Of a DNA stretch of 32,000 nucleotides, positions 10,783 through 30,935 are shown in pieces (position 1 is the stretch's first letter; each line of letters opens with the position of its first letter). A program made the position numbers and the translations under genes. The stretch covers positions 450,001 through 482,000 of the forward strand of contig AP027133.1 of assembly GCA_027925325.1 (NCBI GenBank), read 5' to 3'. The notes beneath the pieces are model-generated. The model was not told the origin of the DNA. It did not search any database and saw nothing but the letters and a program-made list of their open reading frames with translations. The DNA is from Candidatus Saccharimonadota bacterium (lineage in GTDB: Bacteria; Bacillota_I; Bacilli_A; Mycoplasmatales; Hepatoplasmataceae).

Positions 10783-11736
10783 TTATTTAATTGCTTCCAA
10801 TGCCTTTTTAGTTGTTTCTTTTAAAATTGTTACAGATTTTTTAAATTGCATTAATTCTTCTCTTGCCAAAGGAAATTGATGAGTTTTTAATATTCCTTTT
10901 CTCCCGATTATTGAAGGGACTCCTGCATAAATGCCTCTCTCCCCATATTCTCCATTAAGTAAAGAACCTGTAGCAAATATCTTTTTCTCATCTCGTAAAA
11001 TTGCTTGCGAAATCTCTGCAAGAACAGCTCCTATTCCATAAAAAGTCGCACGTTTGCGATTGATGATTTCATAAGCTTTCATATAAACATTTTTATGAAT
11101 TTCTGCTCTTTTTTTAGCATCGATATTTTTCTTTAAATAAAAGTCTTTTAATGGAATCCCATTTAAAGTTGCATTTTCAATCGTTGATACAGATGAATCT
11201 CCATGTTCACCCAATACAAACATGTTTAAATCTTTTGCATTAACATCAAAGATTTTTGCAAATTCAATTTTTAATCTATTTGTATCTAATGTACAAGATG
11301 ATGAAATAACTTTTTTTGCATCAAATTTTGTCACAAATTGATAAACTGTCGTCATAACATCGACAGGATTTGAAGCAATTAATGTGATTCCATCAAAATT
11401 TGTTTTTTTGATCTCTAATGCGATGTTTTTCATAATTTTAGCATTATCAGCGACCATCTCTAAACGAGTTTCACCTGGTTTTTGTGGACGTCCTGCTGTA
11501 ATCACCAAAAGATCGGCATCATTTAATAATTCATAACCACCACTTTTAACCATGTAAGGATAAGCGGCAGATGGAGAAGCATCTTCAAAATCTAATTCTT
11601 GTCCTTTTGCTGCGTCTTTGTTAATATCAATAATTACATATTCTTCAGCAATTCCTTTTGACATTGCTCAATATAAAAAAGAAGTACCAACGGCTCCGGC
11701 ACCGACCAAGGCAATCTTATTTGTTGTTTTTTTCAT
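10783..11736 (-). CDS. ldh: L-lactate dehydrogenase (317 aa)
   Basis: Track ORF extends across a TGA (FLYWAMSKG) to an ATG at 11734..11736 (MKKTTNKIALVGAGAVGTS: Rossmann GxGxxG). It contains ITAGRPQKPGETRLE, where Gln rather than Arg is the LDH-type specificity residue, and GEHGDS. Confidence 0.9.
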
Positions 11737-11863
11737 AAATGAAATTTCTAATTTCTCCTTTATCGCTAACTTTTAAAGTAAAAGTTACAACTATATTTTA
11801 AAATAAAAAGATAATAATAATATAATTTATTACTAAAAGAAATCTTTTATCTAAAAATTCATA

Positions 11864-12286
11864 ATGGCATTTAAAAAAATTTATAATAACAAAACCAAAT
11901 ATTATTTTTTTGTGAAAAATAAAGATACAGAAATTTATCTAACAAGAATAATTAATTTTAAGGATTATAAAAATAATTTGATAAAAATAAAAGAATTTCC
12001 TCCTAATTTTGGGTATTTTATTTTTAAACCAAAAGGATTTAATTCTTTTTTAATAAATGAAAAATTGGATATTATTTTCACAGATTGGGATAATAGAATT
12101 TTTTACCTACAAAAAAGTTTTAAAACAAATAATTTTACTAAAGGATTTAAAGATGCAAAATTTCTTTATATTTTGCCACAAAAAACGATTGAAAATTTCA
12201 GCATATCAATCGATGATATTATTACCCATAGAAGAATGAGTAATAAAAAATGAAGAAAAATAGAATTTCGAAAGATAAATTATTAA
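11864..12286 (+). CDS. hypothetical protein, possibly DUF192 family (140 aa); the only plus-strand gene
   Basis: Track ORF 11864..12253 reads through the TGA at 12251 to a TAA at 12284..12286. The segment GYFIFKPKG...EKLDIIFTDWDNRIFYL...AKFLYILP resembles the DUF192 core (Gmlf.f...pLDiiF.d.dg.i..i....a.yvlE). This is recognised by eye only. Confidence 0.4.
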
Positions 12287-12927
12287 GTTCTTTTATTAAT
12301 ATATTTGATAATATTTTTTGTAACTTTATTTATTGAAAGATAATCAGTATCTAATTCCAAATATCTTTTCGAATATTTACGAAAAATATCTTTATTTGCT
12401 TTTTTAGAATAATAACGATAATATAAATCTTGTCAATATTCACGATCAAATTTTTGCTCTTCCAAACGATTTCGTTTTTTCATTCGTTCAATAATCACAT
12501 CAAAAGAAGCACGAAGAACGATAAAAAAATCTGGTTTTTCAAATAAATCTATCTTTTCAAGCATCGAATTATAAACCTTCTCATAGGCAAGACCCAATTC
12601 TTTTGATCTTGTTTTTTTAATTAATCTTAATTCTGCAAAAATTTTATCCTCAAGAAAGTGACGATCATAAATAATCACAACATTTTTATGATTTTTGTAT
12701 TTTTGTTCAATTTCAATGAATTGATGAAATCTTTCAAACAAAAAATCAAGTTGAGCAAGGAAACTTCAATTTAAAAAATTATTAAAATAAAGATCAAAAT
12801 AAGGTGAATAAACTAAAATTTCTCCCATTATAATCACCTTTTTCCCCTCTTTTTGATAATAATTTTTTAAATTATTAACCGTTGTGCTCTTCCCAACGCC
12901 AGTTGTTCCGCTGATAACTATTTTCAT
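12283..12927 (-). CDS. deoxynucleoside kinase family protein, paralog 1 (214 aa)
   Basis: ATG at 12925..12927. MKIVISGTTGVGKST (P-loop), NWSFLAQLDFLFER, YDRHFLEDKIFA, and lid RMKKRNRLEE. Joined across two TGA codons. The stop TAA at 12283..12285 overlaps the stop of the convergent plus-strand gene. Confidence 0.8.
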
Positions 12928-13561
12928 AAATATTTCCTTTTTCTATTATTTTTAAAATATCATCCAATACTTTCTCTTTACTTTGATCAGCATTTATTAG
13001 GTAAAAATGATCGCTGTTTTCTTTAAAGTATTGTTGAATTTGCAAATCTTGATAATATTTTTTATAAAGTTCCTTTCAATAAAAATTAAGTTTCGGATCT
13101 AATTCTATCTCTCTTCCTCGTTCTCTAATACGATTTAAAGTTATCTCAAATTTGCTTACCAAAAGAAAAAAATAAATCTTATTTTTTTGGTAATTTAGTT
13201 TCTCAAGTAGAATTTGATTAATTTTTTTATAAATCATAAAATTAAAGCTTGCCATCGAATCCTTAATTAAATTAAGAGAAGAAAAAACATAATCATCAAG
13301 AAAATGACGATCATAAATATTAATATCATTATGATCTTTATTTAAAAAAGAATCTTTAAATCTTAATCTTAAAAAATCAAGTTGAGTAAGAAATGATCAT
13401 TCTTCTTTATTTTGGTAATAAAAATCTAAATAAGGATTCTCTGTGAAAATTTCTTTAATTAAATTGATTTTTGATTGCTTTGTTTTTTTTAATTTTAAAT
13501 AAAGCATTTCAGAAATTGTTGATTTGCCAACACCAACCGTTCCACTTATTATAATATCCAT
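12875..13561 (-). CDS. deoxynucleoside kinase family protein, paralog 2 (228 aa)
   Basis: Not in the ORF track because it is broken by TGA. ATG at 13559..13561. MDIIISGTVGVGKST, ENPYLDFYYQNKEEWSFLTQLDFL, YDRHFLDDYVF, and lid RIRERGREIE. Its frame runs 53 nt into paralog 1 before a TAA at 12875..12877. Confidence 0.75.
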
Positions 13562-13579
13562 TTTAAGCTATATCTTTTA

Positions 13580-14233
13580 TTATTGAATTTTAATGTGTGA
13601 TAATATCTCGTCTTTTACTTGCTCTGGACTTTTATTTAATGTATCAATGATGATAAAATTTTCAACATTTCGTTTAAAATGATTTTGAATCATCGGTCGT
13701 TGATAATAATTATGATAAAGATCTTTTCAATAATTAAGATCAACACTCTTCTCTACACTTCGATTCCGATTTTTAAATCTCTTAATTATTTCATCAAAAT
13801 TAGCTGTAAGAAGAAAAAAATAATTTGGTCTTGCCTCTAAAAAATTCATTTTATCAATTAATTCTTTATAAATTGCTTGATAAGTAATTGAATTCATATT
13901 AGAGATATTTTCTTTGATTGTATGTAATTCAGCAAATACATAATCATCAAGAAAATGACGATCGTAGATTGTAATATAATTTTTATTACGATCTAAAAAT
14001 TGTTCTCTTCTTTTTTCATCTAATAATCACTGTTTAAATCTTCCTAATAAAAAATCCAATTGCGAAATAAAAGCTCACTCCTGTGGATTTTTATAATAAT
14101 AATCAAGATATATTGATTTTACAGTTTCCTCTTTTAATAAATTTAAATAATTAGTTTTTTGTAATTCTTTAAATAACAATTCTGAAACAGTTGATTTACC
14201 AACACCGACCGTTCCTGAAATTACAATTCTCAT
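13580..14233 (-). CDS. deoxynucleoside kinase family protein, paralog 3 (217 aa)
   Basis: Not in the ORF track because it is broken by TGA. ATG at 14231..14233. MRIVISGTVGVGKST, YYKNPQEWAFISQLDFL, YDRHFLDDYVFA, and lid RFKNRNRSVE. TAA at 13580..13582. Confidence 0.8.
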
Positions 14234-14265
14234 AATATTATATTTACCTCTCTTTTATTAAAAAT

Positions 14266-19197: not shown

Positions 19198-20091
19198 TTA
19201 AAAATTTCGATAATTTTTTCCTTTTAAATCAATTTCACCATATAATAGTCCTTTAATTCTTTCAATTATCCGCATAATATTTTTATTCTCAAAAAGATCT
19301 TGTTGTTTTTTTGCATTTGCTTCATTTTGCAAAATTTTTTCATACTGCATCAAAGAATAATTAGAAATAAAAAACGTTAATTTGCTTGCTTCTAATCGAT
19401 AATTTATAATTGGCAATAAAAAATTATTTCTAATTCAACTATTTGATTTTTCGGCACCGATATCATCAATTATTAAAACATCAGCCATTTTTAAATAATT
19501 AAATCTCTGTGCTGTTGAAATCTCACTTGTATTTAAAGAAATATTGTTTTGATAATCAAGAACAAAATCTGGTCAAAAAATATAAACAACTTTAAAATTT
19601 AAATTTCTAGCAATAAAATTTAAAAACGAAATCATGATGTAACTTTTGCCAACACCAAAATCACCATAAATTCAAAATCCTTTTACTTTCTCATGATTTT
19701 TCAATTTATTTAAAATCGTAAAAAGATTTTTTTGTAAAATTAATCTTTCTTTTGTTCAATAAATATCTTTATCAATATCTATCAAATAATAATCTTTTGT
19801 TGAGAGAGGAAAATAATAATTTTTTGCTATTTTATTAATTAATAATTCTTTACTGTATTCTAAATCTTTTACAGAAAAATTAAAGATGAACTGTTTATTT
19901 TCAATCGCTAAATTTAAATTATATCTGCGCAAATTTTGATTTTTTTCTTCAAATTGATCAATATATTTTAATAAGAGATTTTGATTACTAATTATCTCTT
20001 TTTCTGAAATATCATTATTCTTAATTTCCAAGAATAAATTTTTATCAATTTTTTCTAATTTTTCTAGTAGGTATTCTGCATTATTTTTCAT
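19198..20091 (-). CDS. dnaI: primosomal helicase loader DnaI (AAA+), 297 aa
   Basis: Fragments 19198..19416 and 19756..20127 share one frame, and the gap translated has only TGA codons. Walker A is GDFGVGKSY and Walker B is LIIDDIGAE. It lies directly downstream of a DnaB_2-type gene, as in Bacillus dnaB-dnaI. The likely start is the ATG at 20089..20091 (MKNNAEYLL), overlapping the upstream stop by 11 nt. Confidence 0.8.
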
Positions 20092-21286
20092 TCTTATATA
20101 AAACGTCCTTAAAAAGGTTTTTATCATCTAAAGAAATATTATTAATTTCATCTTCCAAGTTAAGTTGATTTCATTTAATTTCTTTTGTTTTTGCTATATT
20201 ACTATTTTTTAATCGAAAACTTTGTTTTAAATAATTAATTAAATATGTTGGATCTTTAATATTTTCTTCTTTAATCGAATTTGCAATCTTTAAAATATAA
20301 TTTTTAACAATTTGTTTATTATTTACCAAATAAGAATAGTCTAATAATATATTTATAAAATAATCTGAAAAAAAATATTTTTCTCTTAAAATTGTAATTA
20401 GTTTTTGATGTGAATTAATTAAAGTATCAATATTTAAGAGATCTAATAAAAAGTTTTCCGGAGTTATTATTTGTAAATGATTCCATTTTAATCGCTCTTT
20501 TTCAATAAATGAATTATGATAATTATTTAAAATTCTTTTTTGATAATTTTTTACAATTATTTCTTTAAATTTTTCAAGATCAAATCCATTTAAAAAATCA
20601 TATGATTCAGATATGATTCTTGCAAATTCAAAATTATCAAGTCCATATATATTTTCATATTCATTTAATAATTTCTTCAATTTAAAATTAAAAAAAGCTT
20701 CATATTTGATTCCTTTTTGCTTTAAAAGCAAATACAAGACACTAAAATTATAGTGATCTTTTTCTTTTTGATTTGAATAAAGATTATCATTTAGATTAAT
20801 ATTTTCTTGTTCTTGTTTAAAATCATTTATTAATTCAAAACTGTCAACTTTGATGTTAATAATTTTTTTTTGCAAAAATTTTAAATTTAAATCATAATTT
20901 TCTTTTCCTATTTTTGCTAATAATAAATTTGTAAAATATGTATTTTTAAAAAATTCATTACATTCCAATGGTTTTTTTAATTCGTATATATAACGATTTT
21001 TTTTTTGATCAAAATATATATTAATCAAATTTAATTTTTCAATTAAAGAAAAAGCCTCAATTAATTGATTTTGATTTAAATCCAAACTTTGTGAAATTCT
21101 TGCAGATGGAATAAATAAATTATTAATTAATCTATTTTCACCTTCCGCTAGTAAAAATGAAAAAAGAAAAAACCCTTCTTTTCCAAGTAATAAAAAATAA
21201 GTGTAATTAAAAAAAATTTCATTTAGAATTGTTCTTGAATAATTAAGATGAATTTTATAAGTAGAATAATATTTAAATTTTTTCAT
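20081..21286 (-). CDS. dnaB: replication initiation and membrane attachment protein (Bacillus DnaB-type, DnaD-like domains), 401 aa
   Basis: The track ORF reads through the TGA at 20171 to a TAA at 20081. The C-terminal segment FINILLDYSYLVNNKQIVKNYILKIANSIKEENIKD resembles the DnaB_2/DDBH2 motif (INVLIHYVM...KNYVEKIASHWARxNIKT). Synteny is coaE-dnaB-dnaI. Confidence 0.65.
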
Positions 21287-21288
21287 AA

Positions 21289-21834
21289 TTATTTATTTTT
21301 TAATAAATTTTTAATATATTTAATATCCTTCTCTTTTAAACCATTTGTTGTATCAATTACATAATCAAATTTAATTGCTAAATTGTCCCATTTTTCAATC
21401 ATTTTTTCGATAAAAGGATAATAATTACCGCTTTCTTTTGCTCGTTTGATTATTTCATTTTTATCTGCTTTTATTAAAATTAATTTATCATAATTAAATT
21501 TTATCGGCGATGAAGAAATGATTGGTAATTCTGCAACATAGTTATCTTGATCTTTTAAATGATTTTTGATTATCGGATGAATCATTTCATTTAATTTCTT
21601 TAATTCTTGTGGATTATTTGTAACTAATATTCCTAATTTTCTTCGATCAACCGATTTGTCTGTGACAAATTGCTTCCCGAAGTATTTTTTAATTAATTTA
21701 TATCCCTCTCCATTCTTAAGATAAATTTTTTTAACAAAAGAATCAGCATGAAAAACTCTTACTTTTTCTTTTTGTAATTCTTTTAAAATTGTTGTTTTTC
21801 CAGAAAATGGTGAACCTATAAGAATAATTATCAT
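21289..21834 (-). CDS. coaE: dephospho-CoA kinase
   Basis: 181-aa intact ORF. The P-loop is GSPFSGKTT. FGKQFVTDKSVDRRKLGILVTNNPQELKKLNEMIHPII matches the CoaE core (FG...dG.ldR..L..ivF.n......Ln.i.HP.i). Confidence 0.8.
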   Translation of the reverse strand: MIIILIGSPFSGKTTILKELQKEKVRVFHADSFVKKIYLKNGEGYKLIKKYFGKQFVTDKSVDRRKLGILVTNNPQELKKLNEMIHPIIKNHLKDQDNYVAELPIISSSPIKFNYDKLILIKADKNEIIKRAKESGNYYPFIEKMIEKWDNLAIKFDYVIDTTNGLKEKDIKYIKNLLKNK

Positions 21835-21949
21835 TTTAGTCTCTTTCTAAAAATATCTTTAATTATATAATAATTAAATTAAATAAAGATTTCAATAATT
21901 AATATTATAGTTTTCTCTTCTATTTAATTAAAGATTATTTAAATTAATA

Positions 21950-23359
21950 TTAAATTGTGCTCTCAAGAACGATAAATAAAATTAAAATCGGTGTAATAAA
22001 AGCAAGAATTGAATCTAATTCTTTTCATCTTTTGGTAAAAATCATTATTATTACGTAAAAAATCAAGCCAAATATTATTCCGTCGCCGATTGAATAAGTT
22101 AAAATAGAAAAAATAATAATTGTAAAGCTGGCGATAAGAATTGCATTATCTTTTAAATTAATTTTAGTAATATTTTTAAACATCAAAAAGCCAACAAGAA
22201 ATAAAGCCCCAATCGTAATACAATCTGTTATCAGACTTTCAAAAAGAGGAATAAAAGGAATCGCTAATAAAAAGCAAATTCCGGTTGTAATTGAAGTTAA
22301 ACCGGTCCTTCCTCCATAAGCTATCCCTGTCGCCGATTCTGCATATACGATTGTATTTGTTGATCCAATTAACGAACCTAAACTTATAGAAGTTGAATTT
22401 ATAAAAAAAGTTCGTTTACTCTTTTTTGGATCAATTTGATAATTTGGATCATTTTCTAATTCTTTTTCAATCATAAAGATTGTTCCTGAACTATCAAGTA
22501 AAGAAATTAAAAATAAAATAAAAATAATAATATAAAAATTGATATCGGTTCAGGTTGAACTATCTGTTAACCCTTCTCAGAATAATAAACTAAGATTATT
22601 AATTCCTATAAAAGACTCCTTATAGCCACTAAAATCAAAATTTATTCAAGGTAAATCTTCATTTATTTCTGAAGTATAATTTAAAATTAAATTCATCAAT
22701 AAACCGACTAAAATCGCAAAAATAATCCCATAAATAATCGCTCCATGAATCTTATTTGCTCAAAGGATTGTTGTAAAAATAATCGTAAGGAGCGCTAATA
22801 ATGTAACAAGATTATAAAGATCACCTAATTCTGTTGGTGTTCCGTTTCCTGCTGTAATAATCCCAGTATTATATAATCCAACATAAAAAATAAAAGCTCC
22901 TATTCCAACTGTAATCGCTAATTTTAAATCATTTGGAATCGCTTTTAATAATCGCGCTTGTGTTCCGGTAAGCGCAACAATCATCAAAAATATTCCCGAA
23001 ATTAAAATTGCAAGATAACTTGCAAAAGGGCCGATCAACGAAATTGCATTATAAGCGATAAAAGCATTTACACCCATTCCAGATGCTATTCCAACCGGAA
23101 ATTTTGCATATACGCCAATTATAATCGTTGTTATTCCGGCCACAATTGCTGTAATTATCATAATTGAGCCAGGATTATAAATTAAAAACTGATCTGGATT
23201 TGCTTCATTTCAAATATCAATTCCCACCGATAAAATACTCGCTTGGACAAAAATAATATAAAGCATCGAGATAAAAACGATTAATCCAGCGATTAATTCT
23301 TTTTTAATATTAGTCTTATTATTTTTTAATTGAAAGTAATTGTAAATAAAATCATGCAA
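21950..23359 (-). CDS. NCS2/AzgA-family purine (guanine/hypoxanthine/adenine) permease, 469 aa
   Basis: Fragments 22025..22474 and 22760..23161 plus flanks are one frame joined by TGA codons. The N-terminus YFQLKNNKTNIKKELIAGLIVFISMLYIIFVQASIL parallels PbuG-type FFQ..E.GT....EIIGGLTTF..MAYILFVNP. It also has ...YAESATGIAYGGRTGLTS. The apparent start is a TTG at 23357..23359; the nearby ATG is out of frame. Confidence 0.75.
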
Positions 23360-25625: not shown

Positions 25626-25949
25626 TTAATATTTTTTTAATAAATCAAAAAAATCAGTTTGCAATTTTTGTTCTTTAATTTGCGAAATTAAATTTAATAA
25701 TTGTCTATTTTTTTCACTTAATTTTAATTTCTCTTCAAAAAATAGAAGATTTTTTTCAGCACGTTTTAAGATATCATAAACTGAATTTCGATTAATATCT
25801 AAAACAGTAGCAATTTCTGTAAGGGAGAAATCTTCAAAATAATAAAACTCAAATAATTGCTGCTGTTTTTTTGTTAATAATAATTTATAAAAATCATAAT
25901 AATCAATAAGTTTTGCTAATTTATTTATTTTATTTGTCATTCTCATCAT
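25626..25949 (-). CDS. ylxM: UPF0122 protein YlxM (SRP-associated HTH protein)
   Basis: 107 aa. YDFYKLLLTKKQQQLFEFYYFEDFSLTEIATVLDINRNSVYDILKRAEKNL matches the YlxM sigma-70-region-4-like HTH. It lies immediately downstream of ftsY, as in Bacillus. The start overlaps the ftsY stop. Confidence 0.85.
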   Translation of the reverse strand: MMRMTNKINKLAKLIDYYDFYKLLLTKKQQQLFEFYYFEDFSLTEIATVLDINRNSVYDILKRAEKNLLFFEEKLKLSEKNRQLLNLISQIKEQKLQTDFFDLLKKY

Positions 25950-26964
25950 CTTCTTCTAAGAGATCAGAAAGCATCGCTAGCAAATATTGATTAAGATCAA
26001 ATTGAGCAAAATCGGTGATTTTTTCACCCATTCCGATAAATTTAACAGGAATGTTAAATACATCTTTAATTGCAAGAATAATTCCCCCTTTTGCACTTGA
26101 ATCGGTTTTTGTAAGAATTATTCCTGTAAGGTTGATTAATTTATCAAACTCCGCAGCCTGATTAATTCCATTTTGACCGATCGTTGCATCAAGAACTAAT
26201 AATTTTTCTTGTGCATTTTTATTTAATAATTTTAAAATTACCTTATTAATTTTTTCAAGTTCTTGCATTAAATTTGCTTTATTTTGCAATCTTCCGGCCG
26301 TATCGATAATTAAAACATTTGCTTTTATTTTTTGTGCTTTAAGGATCGCTTTATAAACAACTGAAGCCGGATCTTGTCCTTCTTTATCTGGAATTATAAC
26401 ATCTATTTTTAATCTATCTCCTCATACTTTTAATTGCTCAACAGCACCGGCACGAAATGTATCGGCCGCTGCAAGGACTACTTTTTGTTCTTTTTTGATT
26501 AAATAATCAGCAAGTTTAGCGATTGAAGTTGTCTTCCCTGTTCCATTTACACCGATTACTAAAATAACATTTAAATCATCTTTTAAATTAAGTAATAATT
26601 GCTCTTTTTTATGATCTTTTTCTAAATATGAATCAAATAAATAATCAACAACAAATTGATTAATTTTTGCTGTCTCGTTAATTTTTTTAATTTTAAGATC
26701 TGCTTTTATTTTATTAATTAAATTATTAGCATATAACGCCCCAATATCAGCTTCAATTAATATTTTTAATAATTCATCAAAATATTCCTGATCGACAACA
26801 AATTTTCTTGCTGCCAATTTTTTTAAACGATATGCAAATGATTTATTTGTTTTGCTTAATGCTTTTTGATATTTTTGTTCAATTTGATCTTCTTTTTGTG
26901 CTTTAATCTTTGTTAAAACTTGATCTTCTTTTTTCTTCTTTTTTAAAAATTTAAATATTGCCAT
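25930..26964 (-). CDS. ftsY: signal recognition particle receptor FtsY (344 aa)
   Basis: Fragments 26422..26964 and 25930..26289 are in the same frame, joined across TGA. SRP GTPase motifs are present: [25 protein letters not shown] and [12 protein letters not shown]. Confidence 0.93.
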
Positions 26965-27140
26965 TTTTATTCTCTTTAATTGATAAATTCTTCTTTAATT
27001 TGATCTAAATTAACATTAAAAATACTTGTAATCCCTTTTTCTTGCATCGTAACACCGTAAAGAATATCTGCTTTTTCCATCGTTCCTGGACGATGAGAGA
27101 CAATAATTAATTGTGTTTGATTATTTAAAATTTTAGCAAA
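26941..27140. repeat. 200-bp direct repeat, copy A (ftsY 5' end + spacer + duplicated smc 3' end)
   Basis: Base-by-base comparison with 28057..28256 gives 196 of 200 identical. Mismatches are at 27032, 27033, 27057 and 27081. Confidence 0.95.
26976..27140 (-). pseudogene. smc: duplicated 3'-terminal fragment of smc (last 54 codons + stop)
   Basis: Translates to [54 protein letters not shown]. It differs from the true SMC C-terminus (28092..28256) only by V to I. Upstream it is fused in frame to unrelated sequence (possible 80-aa chimeric ORF 26976..27218). Confidence 0.85.
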
Positions 27141-28056
27141 ATAAAAAATATTTCGATATTTTCTTCAATAGATAATGCTTTTATTTCATTTAACAATCCA
27201 TATATAAATAATGTTCATGACGAATGTAAATTTAATTAATAAAAATCCTTCATTTCTTTTAAGATATTTATAAATTTAATTTATTATTATGTTTGTTATA
27301 ATGTTAATTTATTTTAAACTTCATATCAATTAAATTTTTGTAGAAAAAAATCCATTATAAAATATATTTTTTTATCAATAAATTCTTTTTTAATCTTGAA
27401 ACTTTCATAATCTAATATAAAATTAAAATCATTATTTTTTCTTTTGTTATTTTCTCAAAAAGATATTTCATTTATTTTTTTTAAAGAAAAATTTTTGTTT
27501 AAATTTTCTATTTTCATGTTATCGTTAAAACATAAAACATTATAAGTAAAGTTTCATCTATATACTCGATTTTTATCTTCTTTTGAATTCAAAAAAAGAA
27601 TTGTTTTTTCAAAAGATTTTAAAATATGCACTATACGATTTTTTTCATTTTTTCTTCTATGTTGACGAAGAGATTTTTTAAATCAATTATCTATTGATTC
27701 TTCATTTTCTATGTATTGAAATGTTTTTCATTTAAAAAATCACATATAATATAATTCTCAAAAATGTAATTCATTTTGATCTAAAATTTTATCAAACAAT
27801 TTTAAAATTTTAAAATCTCCTTTTCATTCTTTTTTTATTGTTTTTTCTTTTTTGTATCAATGTTGATATAATCTATTTCTTAAATTTGTTGTTCTACCAA
27901 TATAAGTAATTTTATTATCTAATCATAATGAATATATGCATTTTATATTATTAAATTCTTTTTTATTAATACTATTGTAGTTAAACATTTCTCCAAAGTT
28001 ATAATCTTCAAATTTCACTTTTTAAGTAATCCTTTTACAATTCTTTATATACAATA
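27141..28056 (-). mobile_element. 916-bp insertion carrying a free-standing GIY-YIG endonuclease gene (homing-endonuclease-like cassette) between smc and ftsY
   Basis: Unique sequence lying between the two 200-bp direct repeats. It contains one long table-4 ORF with GIY-YIG motifs. I saw no transposase, integrase or terminal inverted repeats. Confidence 0.7.
27314..28018 (-). CDS. GIY-YIG domain nuclease (234 aa) with an uncharacterised C-terminal half
   Basis: Absent from the ORF track because it has 10 in-frame TGA codons and no TGG. My translation: (GTG)KFEDYNFGEMFNYNSINKKEFNNIKCIYSLWLDNKITYIGRTTNLRNRLYQHWYKKEK...NELHFWELYYMWFFKWKTFQYIENEES... The motifs are (G)IY, spacer, YIG, R..RL..H, then a conserved Glu (FWE) and Asn. 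I checked the frame at four coordinates. The stop is a TAA at 27314..27316. An alternative start is the ATG at 27988. Confidence 0.7.
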
Positions 28057-28080
28057 TTTTAAAAATTTAAATATTGCCAT
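28045..28080 (-). pseudogene. ftsY: decapitated duplicate of the ftsY start (RBS + first 8 codons, then a stop after 11 codons)
   Basis: ATG GCA ATA TTT AAA TTT TTA AAA is identical to the ftsY 5' end at 26964. It then diverges (TAT TGT ATA TAA) at the repeat boundary. Confidence 0.7.
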
Positions 28081-28256
28081 TTTTATTCTCTTTAATTGAT
28101 AAATTCTTCTTTAATTTGATCTAAATTAACATTAAAAATACTTGTAACTCCTTTTTCTTGCATCGTAACACCATAAAGAATATCTGCTTTTTCCATTGTT
28201 CCTGGACGATGAGAGACAATAATTAATTGTGTTTGATTATTTAAAATTTTAGCAAA
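28057..28256. repeat. 200-bp direct repeat, copy B (true smc 3' end + spacer + duplicated ftsY 5' end)
   Basis: See copy A. Mismatches are at 28148, 28149, 28173 and 28197. Confidence 0.95.
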
Positions 28257-30935
28257 TGAAGCAAATCTTTCCACATTTGCTTCATCAAGGGCCGCTTCTA
28301 CTTCATCTAATAATAAAAGTGGTAATTTTCTAATCTCATTGATGGCAAAAATTAATGAGATTGCGATCAATGATTTTTCACCACCTGAATAAAGAGAAAG
28401 ATTTTTCACCGCTTTCCCAGGAGCGGAGGCTTTTATTTCAAGTCCTGATTCTAATAAATTATCTGGTTCTAAAAATTGTAATTTAGCATGTCCACCTCTA
28501 AATAAAGTTTTAAAAATAGCATCAAAACGATCATTTATTTTTGTAAAAGTATTTCCGATTCGTTTAATCATTTCTTGATCCATAATTTCAATCGTAGAAA
28601 TTAATTTATTCTTTGCCTCTGTTAAATCAGTCACTTCATAATTTAATTTTTGATAATCTTTTTCTAATTTTTGATATCTTTCAATTGAATCTTGATCGAT
28701 ATAACCAATCGCTTTTAATTCACTTCGATATTGTTGTTGTTTTGCTATTATCTCTTCTAATTTCTCTTTTGTCTTTACAAATTTCTTTTGTTTTAAATTA
28801 TCATATGTTAATTGATAATCTTTGTTTAAAATATCAATATTATCATTAATTTCTCGTTCTAATTTATCTAATCTAATTTCCGCATGTTGCACTTTCTCTA
28901 AAAGCTCTTGTCATTTTTTATTTTGTAACTGTTGCTCATCTTGCGCACCAATTATTTTAAGTGACAATTGATGTTTTTTAGCATTAAGATTTTTAATTTG
29001 ATTGATAATTTTCTCAAGTGATAAAGGCTTTTCAATTTTTGTTTTTTGCTCTAATTGATTTAAATTAAATTCTTCATTAAACGTAGTTTGATAACCTTCT
29101 AATAATTGCATAAATTCATGATCTAAATGATTCAATCTTTCACCACTACGGATAATTTCTCGTTGAATTAACTCTTTTTTGGCATTAAAATCTAAAATAT
29201 TTGTCTCTAGATTATCAATTTTTATTTGATTTACTTTGATAATTTTTTCTAATTTTTCTTTTCCCAATTGATATTTTGCTAATTCATTTTTTGTTTTAAC
29301 TTTATTATTATATCCGCCCTTTACCGTAAAACCTGGATAGATAATATCACCATCTAAGGTTACTATCGTTAAACGATATTGAATAAATTTTGCAGCCATT
29401 AAAGCTGAATCTAAATCGTTAAAAATAACAATATTTCCTGTAAGGGAAGAAATGACATTTTTAAATTTTTGATCAGCTTTTATTACATCGCTTAAAATTG
29501 CAACAAAACCATTAATTTTTAAAACAACATTTTTTAATTCATTGTTTAATAGTTTTCCTTTTACATTTTCAGCAGGGATAAATGTTGCAACTCCACTTTT
29601 ATTATTTTTTAAAAAAGCAATCGCCTCTTTGATTGTTTTTTCATTATTTACAATTAAATTTTGAAATTTATTAGTAATTGCTGCCTCAAGTGCCAATTGA
29701 TATTCTTTATCAACTTTAATAAGATCTTTTACCGTTCCATAGATAAAATTAAAAATTAATTTATTATCTAAAATTATTTTTACGGCTTGATTATAATTTT
29801 TATCGCTTTTTTTTAAATATTCGATCTGAAATTTTATTTGATTCAATTTATTACTATAATCTTTGGTTTGCTCTTCTAAATTAGACATTTCCTTTTTAAA
29901 AGAAATTATTTCCTTATTTAAATTTTCTTCTTCTTGTTCTGCTGTTTTGATAATTTCTTTTAAATCATTTACTGCAAAAAGCGAATATTTAATTTTGCTA
30001 GCAAATTCTTTTTTATCACCCTTGAAATTAATTGCTTTATTTAAATTATTTTGTAAATTATTCTGCTTTGCATGTAATTCTGTGATTTCTTGGTCTAATT
30101 TTAAAAGATCTATTTGATCTTTTTTTAGTTCTCTTGCTAATTTATCTAAATTTTTTTCAATTAAAACCTTTTCATCATCACTTTTTAATTTGAATTGACT
30201 TAATTCTTCTTGTTCTTTATAATCATCATTTAAAATATTTTGAATAAGTGGTAATTCAATCTTTGCTAATTGCTCTTTTATTTGTAAATAATTTTTGGCT
30301 TGTTCACTCGCCTTTTTTAAAGGGGCAATTTGTTTTTTTAATTCTGCTAATTTTACCTCAAAAATTTCTAAATTTGTCTTTACTTTTTCAAATTTTAAAA
30401 GCGCTTCTTTTTTATGGAGTTGATATTTGCTAACTCCTGAAGCTTCATCTAAAAGTGCTCGTAAATCTTGCGCTCTTGCTTCTGCAATTTTAGCAACCGA
30501 ACCTTGTGAAATAATCGAAAGATCGGTATTACCTAATCCAGTATCTAAAAAAAGATTACGAACATCTTTTCTTCTTACTTTTTCTTTATTAATAAAATAT
30601 TCATTTTCATTTTTATTACGATAAGACTTTCTTGTAATTATTACCTCATTTGCCTCATGTTCTAAAATTTTATTATCGTTATCAAAAAAAAGACTGACCT
30701 CTGCAAATTCAGCCGCTTCTTTATTAAGTGAACCACTAAAGATCATATCATCAGTTTTTTTAGCACGCAAAGTCTTTTTTGAGCTCTCGCCCAAAACTCA
30801 CTTTAAAGCGTCATTTATATTTGATTTTCCTGAACCATTTGGACCGACAATCACCGTAAGTCCCTTTTTAAATTCGACAACTGTTGGAAAAGCAAATGAC
30901 TTAAAACCTTTAAGCTCAATTTTTTTTAAAAACAT
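28092..30935 (-). CDS. smc: chromosome condensation/segregation ATPase SMC (947 aa)
   Basis: Fragments 28092..28892 and 28911..30794 plus the N-terminus up to the ATG at 30933..30935 are in one frame, joined by TGA codons. The N-terminal Walker A is [14 protein letters not shown]...[11 protein letters not shown] long coiled coil and hinge follow. The C-terminal signature is LSGGEKS-like YSGGEKSL, with Walker [13 protein letters not shown] and the H-loop VSHR. Confidence 0.93.

Follow-up and report, generated by a model that had tools for sequence, protein, structure and literature searches.

How could a nuclease gene come to lie at the 11-nt junction of smc and ftsY while both host genes remain whole? 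This question is raised by the chromosome of Candidatus Hepatoplasma scabrum Ps-JP (606,194 bp), an isopod gut symbiont, which is the source of the 32-kb stretch of DNA analyzed here (the window). The window has a GC content of approximately 24%, carries nearly all of its genes on the minus strand, and is readable solely with TGA as Trp (translation table 4). Along the direction of transcription, the genes of the locus are ordered rnc, smc, a nuclease open reading frame (ORF), ftsY, and ylxM, and all features of this locus described below were read on the minus strand. The nuclease ORF encodes a GIY-YIG endonuclease-like protein (BDV03716.1/HPPSJP_4370), and the smc-ftsY junction is present twice, once on each side of it. 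As the best explanation, to which we give about even confidence, we propose a lineage-specific insertion at this junction of a phage-type, free-standing, homing-endonuclease-like GIY-YIG gene, accompanied by a duplication of the junction itself.

The duplicated smc-ftsY junction

The junction is repeated as copy A (26941-27140) and copy B (28057-28256), two direct repeats of 200 nt each that are identical at 196 of 200 positions, with a start-to-start spacing of 1116 and 916 bp (27141-28056) between them. Each copy consists of 54 smc codons with the stop codon (165 nt), an 11-nt spacer, and eight ftsY codons (24 nt). The four mismatches are located at 27032/28148, 27033/28149, 27057/28173, and 27081/28197 (copy A/copy B), and the copies have exact stretches of 91 nt and 59 nt in common. 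No other direct repeat of the window comes close to it in length or identity; the next is a family of 80 nt with 68-71% identity and a spacing of about 650 nt, which is accounted for by three tandem paralogous deoxynucleoside kinase genes at 12283-14254 on the minus strand (Pfam dNK, E 1e-21 to 1e-26). The first-pass annotation of this DNA had described 200-bp direct repeats at smc/ftsY, and its coordinates and arithmetic (165 + 11 + 24 = 200) were all correct.

Both host genes are complete. The smc gene (28092-30935) encodes 947 aa under table 4, with its last 54 codons and stop codon within copy B; the product matched Pfam SMC_N (4.7e-68) and SMC_hinge (2.5e-26), and the gene was collinear with smc of relatives (942-951 aa). 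The ftsY gene (25930-26964, start at 26964 and end at 25930) encodes 344 aa, and its product matched Pfam SRP54 (1e-72) and was identical to the NCBI FtsY of Ca. Hepatoplasma scabrum. The translations and Pfam matches therefore agreed with the earlier proposal that copy B completes smc and copy A supplies the ftsY start. In copy B, the smc stop codon (28094-28092) is followed by the 11-nt spacer and then by an ATG at 28080; the ribosome-binding site (RBS), ATG, and first eight codons of ftsY in this copy form a non-functional start. In copy A, the spacer, RBS, and first eight ftsY codons are functional, and the displaced smc 3' end is part of no complete gene, its translation fitting the end of Pfam SMC_N (positions 178-219 of 220). 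Since the two genes are only 11 nt apart, the duplication of their junction makes an insertion survivable: one copy ends smc, and ftsY obtains its native leader from the other. With no intergenic DNA to spare in this operon, no other arrangement would let such a gene lie here without being lethal.

The duplication also leaves two short frames without a complete gene. The first is the displaced smc-tail frame (26976-27275), which extends over 99 codons from stop to stop, passes through a decayed smc remnant described below, and continues into copy A, where the native smc stop codon closes it 11 nt before the ftsY ATG. The 45 codons of this frame upstream of copy A are free of stops, which was matched by 1.1% of shuffles, and the sole upstream ATG (27218) has no evident RBS. 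The open frame may be due to chance, or translation may have been retained for coupling to ftsY. The second is a mini-ORF of 11 codons (28045-28080) read from the duplicated ftsY start, which encodes MAIFKFLK followed by YCI and a stop, and ends 26 nt ahead of the nuclease start; it may serve as a leader.

The repeat is the most conserved DNA of the locus. Its identity to the two nearest species was 95% (ERR14042366, L001, the closest relative) and 92% (L002), against approximately 80% elsewhere, and its codon identity at conserved residues was 0.86-0.88 against a mean of 0.72-0.73 (standard deviation 0.07). Synonymous positions were likewise conserved: across the final 54 or so smc codons (28092-28256; compare L001, L002, L005, and L006), synonymous conservation was about 2 standard deviations above the gene mean. 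The conserved end of smc hints at a constraint at the nucleotide level, for example ftsY expression signals inside the smc end. Highly conserved sequence is the typical target of homing endonucleases.

Whether the repeat is real depends in part on the assembly. According to the parts of the genome report that deal with H. scabrum (PMC10928387), the sequenced symbiont came from the host Porcellio scaber; its metagenome-assembled genome (MAG) was assembled by SPAdes from 2x150 Illumina reads alone at 20x and left unpolished, and Oxford Nanopore Technologies (ONT) coverage was 4.9x, the ONT assemblies giving no circular contig for this genome. These properties favour an alternative in which there is a single true junction and the 916-bp core, derived from another molecule or strain, was threaded into it by SPAdes via the 91-nt stretch. 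The exact stretches shared by the copies also favour it. Stretches of 91 nt and 59 nt are long enough to form graph repeats at common k values in de Bruijn assemblers. However, such assemblers collapse repeats and do not invent them, the copies differ at four sites, and each junction is a unique sequence. Uniform coverage and a check of the read mapping by the genome authors, as given in the same parts of the report (PMC10928387), also stand against an artefact.

The inserted GIY-YIG gene and its relatives

The nuclease gene (27314-28018) starts with GTG at 28018, ends with a stop codon at 27316-27314, and encodes 234 aa. AAAGGA, a candidate RBS by its sequence, is located at 28030-28035, 11 nt upstream of the GTG. 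The ORF contains no in-frame stop, whereas the other two frames contain 16 and 28, and 2000 composition-matched shuffles contained 23.5 on average and 8 at minimum. Therefore, the gene has been kept open by selection. All ten of its Trp codons are TGA and none is TGG, indicating that it evolved in a system that reads TGA as Trp. The earlier statement that the 916 bp hold a nuclease ORF in the operon orientation and in the TGA=Trp code was thus confirmed. This gene is the sole ORF of at least 80 codons wholly contained in the 916 bp, and no integrase or transposase was found there.

The GC content of the nuclease gene is 16.5%, compared with 26-27% for smc, ftsY, and rnc. The region 20001-21500 of the window is likewise GC-poor (17-18%); it holds a 403-codon ORF (20081-21292), whose counterpart in relatives matches a Pfam DnaB winged-helix domain. 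As this region is as GC-poor as the insert, low GC alone is no mark of foreign DNA in this genome.

The GIY-YIG assignment, which had been made from the letters of the sequence, was supported by several matches. Residues 27-91 matched Pfam PF01541 (GIY-YIG) at profile positions 3-68 of 78 with 24.6 bits (E 3.1e-5), a small margin over the gathering score of 22.6, and the product matched PHROG 1111, annotated as 'endonuclease' (E 2.3e-5). When BDV03716.1 and three distant relatives were used as a profile against PDB sequences, they matched T4 endonuclease II (2WSH, E 3.3e-6) and the N-terminal nuclease domain of UvrC. In the alignment with the distant relatives, Y29 (in CIY), Y39 and G41 (in YIG), R49, H53, and E88 were invariant. 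The supplement of the genome report lists BDV03716.1 as a 'GIY-YIG type nuclease' of unknown function; the passages of the report on H. scabrum do not mention the repeat (PMC10928387). A role as an anti-phage defence gene was also tried as a candidate; the whole protein matched no PADLOC model and no NCBIfam family.

The surroundings of the gene indicated neither an intron nor a transposon. A scan of 26500-28700 with Rfam (E up to 1) matched no family, so that a group I intron or another structured RNA was ruled out; with the ORF placed between the smc stop and the ftsY start, the gene is free-standing and not intronic. An insertion sequence or transposon was ruled out as well, as there is no transposase and no inverted repeat pairs the ends of the insert. 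Between the stop codon of the nuclease ORF and copy A there are 173 nt, which include a stretch (27201-27313) that has no Rfam match, no terminator-like site, and no significant similarity to smc or ftsY. Since no terminator-like site was found in the insert region, transcription from the operon promoter probably continues through the cassette. Promoter matches in the same region were equal in number to the shuffle expectation and hence uninformative.

Relatives of the nuclease proved to be few and distant. A word-indexed search of 5.8 billion protein clusters returned BDV03716.1 itself only, and an exhaustive HMMER search of 1.84 billion representatives gave four weak matches restricted to the N-terminal domain, one of which was spurious (a low-complexity repeat protein). 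A profile search with the nuclease alignment recovered its own input sequences only. When back-translated patterns were scanned against GTDB genomes, JGI metagenomes, and IMG/VR, no related sequence came up; with degenerate motifs, genomes and metagenomes likewise gave no match and IMG/VR gave one unrelated phage GIY-YIG gene, and tblastn gave no match among GenBank phages and PLSDB plasmids. The gene for one distant relative (P0124) lies directly upstream of phage terminase and portal genes, and that for another (P0125) is found among short ORFs, most of them unannotated, on a contig that is phage-like in appearance. By family, BDV03716.1 thus appears to be the product of a phage-type free-standing GIY-YIG gene, and yet it is a singleton in the sequences searched.

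A phage contig provides an observation of its own. IMGVR_UViG_3300046012_000093 (L007) carries, at 11670-12281 on the minus strand, a 203-aa ORF with GIY-YIG motifs identified by motif scan alone, which is not close to the Hepatoplasma gene. It is flanked by putative halves of a ribonucleotide-reductase-type gene, as judged from the translations. If this is true, the ORF is a textbook example from phages of a gene split by a homing endonuclease.

Empty sites and the two ages of the duplication

The databases contain no second H. scabrum genome; the site was compared between species, using other Hepatoplasmataceae. Six ftsY loci from at least four other lineages were compared: the Hepatoplasma ERR14042366 from Logan (FtsY identity to H. 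scabrum 82%), three of H. crinochetorum (Av, Tokyo2021, and one further assembly), the more distant lineage ERR14127475 (56%), and Ca. Tyloplasma litorale. In all six, the order was rnc-smc-ftsY-ylxM, ftsY began 2-25 nt past the smc end, and there was no nuclease gene. The first-pass annotation had predicted that an empty site would be a single copy of the junction, and this is what every one of the related loci contained. The nuclease gene is missing from the outgroup as well, so that the insertion is a gain of the H. scabrum lineage, and we regard it, from these comparisons, as lineage-specific.

Two other features were noted. In ERR14042366 (L001), an RNase HII gene is located at 11008-11847 on the minus strand, between a permease gene and coaE and on the strand opposite to them; the window (approximately 21846-21950) and H. 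crinochetorum have a short gap at this place. On the plus strand of the window, an ORF of 140-143 codons (11855-12286) has no Pfam match and is among the few substantial plus-strand ORFs free of minus-strand overlap.

The repeat does not end where its near-identity ends. Adjoining copy A, 27141-27200 is a decayed remnant of smc that corresponds to the Walker B/D-loop region (approximately codons -74 to -55 from the smc end); it is approximately 63% identical to 28257-28316 and contains a 2-nt gap that shifts the frame. The 18-residue Walker B segment of Smc now reads LLNEIKALSIEENIEIF in the remnant, followed by the frameshift, and the substitutions are mostly from G/C to A/T. The anchored in-register score was 14, against 3.1 +/- 2.7 for the null, and 18 of 5000 random windows reached 14, with the true self and homologous positions included among them. 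Local alignment with strict scoring missed this remnant, and very permissive blastn and blastx gave A/T-rich noise alone. On the ftsY side, the repeat ends abruptly, with no comparable extension in the anchored test. From the extent of this homology, the original duplication is estimated at 260 nt or more, with its ends near smc codon -74 and at ftsY codon 8. Hence, the 200 bp given earlier as the size of the duplication holds for the near-identical block and not for its full extent, since some 60 nt of diverged smc homology adjoins copy A. The remnant also provides the strongest point against an assembly artefact: the core holds a decayed piece of this very smc and uses the host genetic code, so that, even as an episome, it would be an element associated with Hepatoplasma.

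A remnant of approximately 63% identity next to a block of 98% identity indicates two ages: an old, long duplication, and 200 nt with sharp bounds that were recently homogenised. The part of copy B that contains the spacer and the ftsY start has no evident function, and yet it is identical to copy A at 35 of 35 positions. Selection alone is therefore insufficient to explain the identity of the copies, whereas homogenisation explains it. The homogenisation may have occurred via gene conversion between the copies, or each transfer may have brought fresh recombination with junction DNA of the host.

The differences between the copies are three synonymous changes and one Ile/Val change. For three of the four, both states occur in the functional smc of relatives; a TAC in copy A is unique. 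They seem to resemble two functional alleles more than random decay, although there are only four sites. At these sites, copy A agreed with ERR14042366 at three and copy B at one, which is too few to decide which copy is native and which is foreign.

Known counterparts and routes of insertion

The first-pass annotation could not assign the insert to a described element family. In its layout, however, it matches the 'mobile ORFs' (mORFs) of fungal mitochondria, which encode LAGLIDADG or GIY-YIG endonucleases (PMC3630166; PMC4019555). An mORF is positioned after a complete, often imported, gene end, and the displaced native end lies about 1 kb downstream (PMC3630166). The first was described for atp6 of Allomyces macrogynus (Paquin, Laforest and Lang 1994, as cited in PMC3630166 and PMC4019555), and further cases are atp6, atp9, cox2, and nad3 of Glomus sp. 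and atp6 and cox2 of Phlebia radiata (PMC3630166; PMC4019555). As in mORFs, a gene core is followed by a complete end, an endonuclease ORF, and a displaced duplicate end, represented here by the smc end in copy B, the nuclease ORF, and the remnant with copy A. The host gene likewise remains functional, nothing prevents the decay of the displaced end, related genomes carry an allele without the ORF, and the genetic code also reads TGA as Trp. Unlike mORFs, the H. scabrum cassette is located in a bacterial chromosome and not in an organelle, its duplicate spans the junction of two genes and so rescues the ftsY start besides the smc end, and there is no in-frame fusion of its nuclease ORF with the host gene. 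The copies are also more alike, with 98% identity over 200 nt before the abrupt drop to approximately 63%, compared with 64-81% between the copies of Glomus mORFs. No bacterial counterpart of a nuclease gene with a duplicated junction in this layout was found in the databases and literature searched. New features are the setting in a bacterial chromosome, the duplicate of a two-gene junction, the near-identical block with sharp bounds, the decayed extension, and the coincidence of the repeat with the most conserved DNA; the mORF layout and the listing of BDV03716.1 as a nuclease were known.

Homing-endonuclease genes of bacterial chromosomes are known mostly from introns and inteins, and free-standing ones are a speciality of phages and organelles. 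The H. scabrum gene is like the free-standing GIY-YIG genes of phages (T4 seg, I-TevI-like) in that it is small, lies between genes on the same strand with no intron, and adjoins unusually conserved essential-gene sequence. It also has an N-terminal GIY-YIG domain followed by a longer C-terminal part, and its nearest relatives are on phage-like contigs. In contrast, the phage genes have no long flanking duplication, carry recognisable DNA-binding modules, and form families of many members, whereas no such module was detected in the H. scabrum product, which is a cellular singleton. With integrative elements that replace the 3' end of a target gene (tRNA, transfer-messenger RNA, or protein genes), the insert has in common the direct repeats, the restored gene end, and the possibility of precise excision. 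Unlike them, it is a single gene without a tyrosine or serine recombinase, and its 200-nt repeat exceeds a typical att core, so that recombination would be homologous and not site-specific. The repeats do permit a precise loss of the cassette by homologous recombination.

Under the proposed insertion of a phage-type nuclease gene with a junction duplication, the nuclease or a chance break would first have opened the junction, and repair would have copied the cassette from a donor, guided by homology on one or both sides, so that a duplicate junction stayed behind. For the mitochondrial elements, break repair with partial homology has been put forward as the route. Thereafter, A/T mutation pressure would have eroded the displaced smc tail in its outer part, while the inner 200 nt would have been re-homogenised by gene conversion, or by later transfer or recombination with host junction sequence. 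The cleavage activity, its target, the mobility of the cassette, and the route are all assumed in this sequence of events.

Several observations weigh against this explanation. One instance has been seen so far, and it is in a single Illumina-only MAG at 20x. No relative above approximately 35% identity was present in any database searched, and therefore there is no sign of spread. One of the two copies still contains, undisrupted, any native target of less than 200 bp. The insertion therefore cannot protect the genome from its own nuclease through target disruption; immunity would have to come from differences in sequence, a low activity, or repair. With a difference of only 2% between the copies, the hallmark of mORFs, in which a foreign end is in use and the native end is displaced, was not demonstrated. 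Within the protein, the conserved Asn in the 'KYN' segment of P0124, P0125, and UvrC has no counterpart, the C-terminal part of approximately 130 aa has no recognisable DNA-binding domain, and residues 92-234 have no match in Pfam, NCBIfam, PHROGs, or PADLOC. AlphaFold2 models had a mean pLDDT of 32.5 (single sequence) and 38.3 (3-sequence alignment), leaving the fold unconfirmed and being too low for a fold search; the order strand-strand-helix at residues 29-56 in these low-confidence models is compatible with a GIY-YIG fold, and no more than that.

The route is less clear than the outcome, as break repair, a Campbell-type crossover, and capture at a tandem duplication give the same end product and are not separated by geometry. 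The two-age structure would be explained either by cycles of transfer, through break repair or Campbell-type integration, or by intragenomic gene conversion. A more far-reaching form of the proposal, which we put forward tentatively and consider improbable, is a bacterial counterpart of mORFs: a minimal selfish GIY-YIG cassette with a 'patch' for two essential genes, which would move between Hepatoplasma strains via approximately 200 nt of the most conserved rnc-smc-ftsY DNA, by break repair or as a 1.1-kb circle, its flanks being renewed at each transfer.

Campbell-type integration, which the first-pass annotation had suggested, appears doubtful as the route, although the geometry fits it exactly. 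Here, a non-replicating 1116-bp circle carrying the nuclease gene and a junction fragment would have entered through one RecA-dependent crossover within the homology. The spacing of the repeats (1116) is the same as the length of such a unit, the two copies have the same orientation, and the four differences all fall to one side of the 91-nt identical stretch, in which the crossover could have taken place. Because there is no integrase or transposase, host recombination would have to act; the same repeats could re-excise the circle, and transformation could carry it to other cells. If the circle were repeatedly excised and re-integrated, the 200 nt would be refreshed each time and the decayed 60 nt, lying in the core, would go on decaying, which would explain the sharp boundary. 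However, the origin of a circle containing host junction DNA is left unexplained, a 1.1-kb circle has no replication function, and the nuclease is given no role. Nor is this route really exclusive of the explanation that we favour, as it concerns how the element arrived and not what it is.

We also think it unlikely that the gene was captured passively, that is, that a spontaneous tandem duplication of the junction trapped phage DNA at its joint. The nuclease would then be an immobile passenger, or would have been domesticated for defence or repair, and the repeats would have remained alike by gene conversion. The singleton status of the gene, with no relatives or other copies in the databases searched, fits this view, as do the decayed extension, which suggests an old duplication, the open ORF, which would suit a function useful to the host, and the intact native target in the genome. 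Furthermore, the genome report describes Hepatoplasmataceae genomes as carrying as many as three nucleases each of the GIY-YIG or HNH type, with no known role (PMC10928387). On the other hand, the protein matched no PADLOC defence model and no NCBIfam family, and the 200-nt repeats would allow a deletion-prone reduced genome to lose a useless gene precisely. The differences between the copies, mostly synonymous and largely shared with functional alleles of relatives, suggest instead an import from another strain. An artefact of assembly or strain heterogeneity, considered above, is very improbable in view of the four differences, the unique junctions, and the decayed smc piece in the core.

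What the insertion means for this symbiont depends on its mobility. If the gene is a fixed passenger, the finding is a minor point of annotation: BDV03716.1 is the product of a GIY-YIG gene, and the downstream frame of 79-99 codons is a displaced smc tail. If it is mobile, a gene of this kind can settle in a genome that has hardly any intergenic DNA by carrying a duplicate of a gene junction with it, and the trick first seen in fungal mitochondria would be more general than thought. In that case, this uncultured symbiont with its reduced genome would also offer a natural insertion site that permits precise excision, and the nuclease might have a new specificity.

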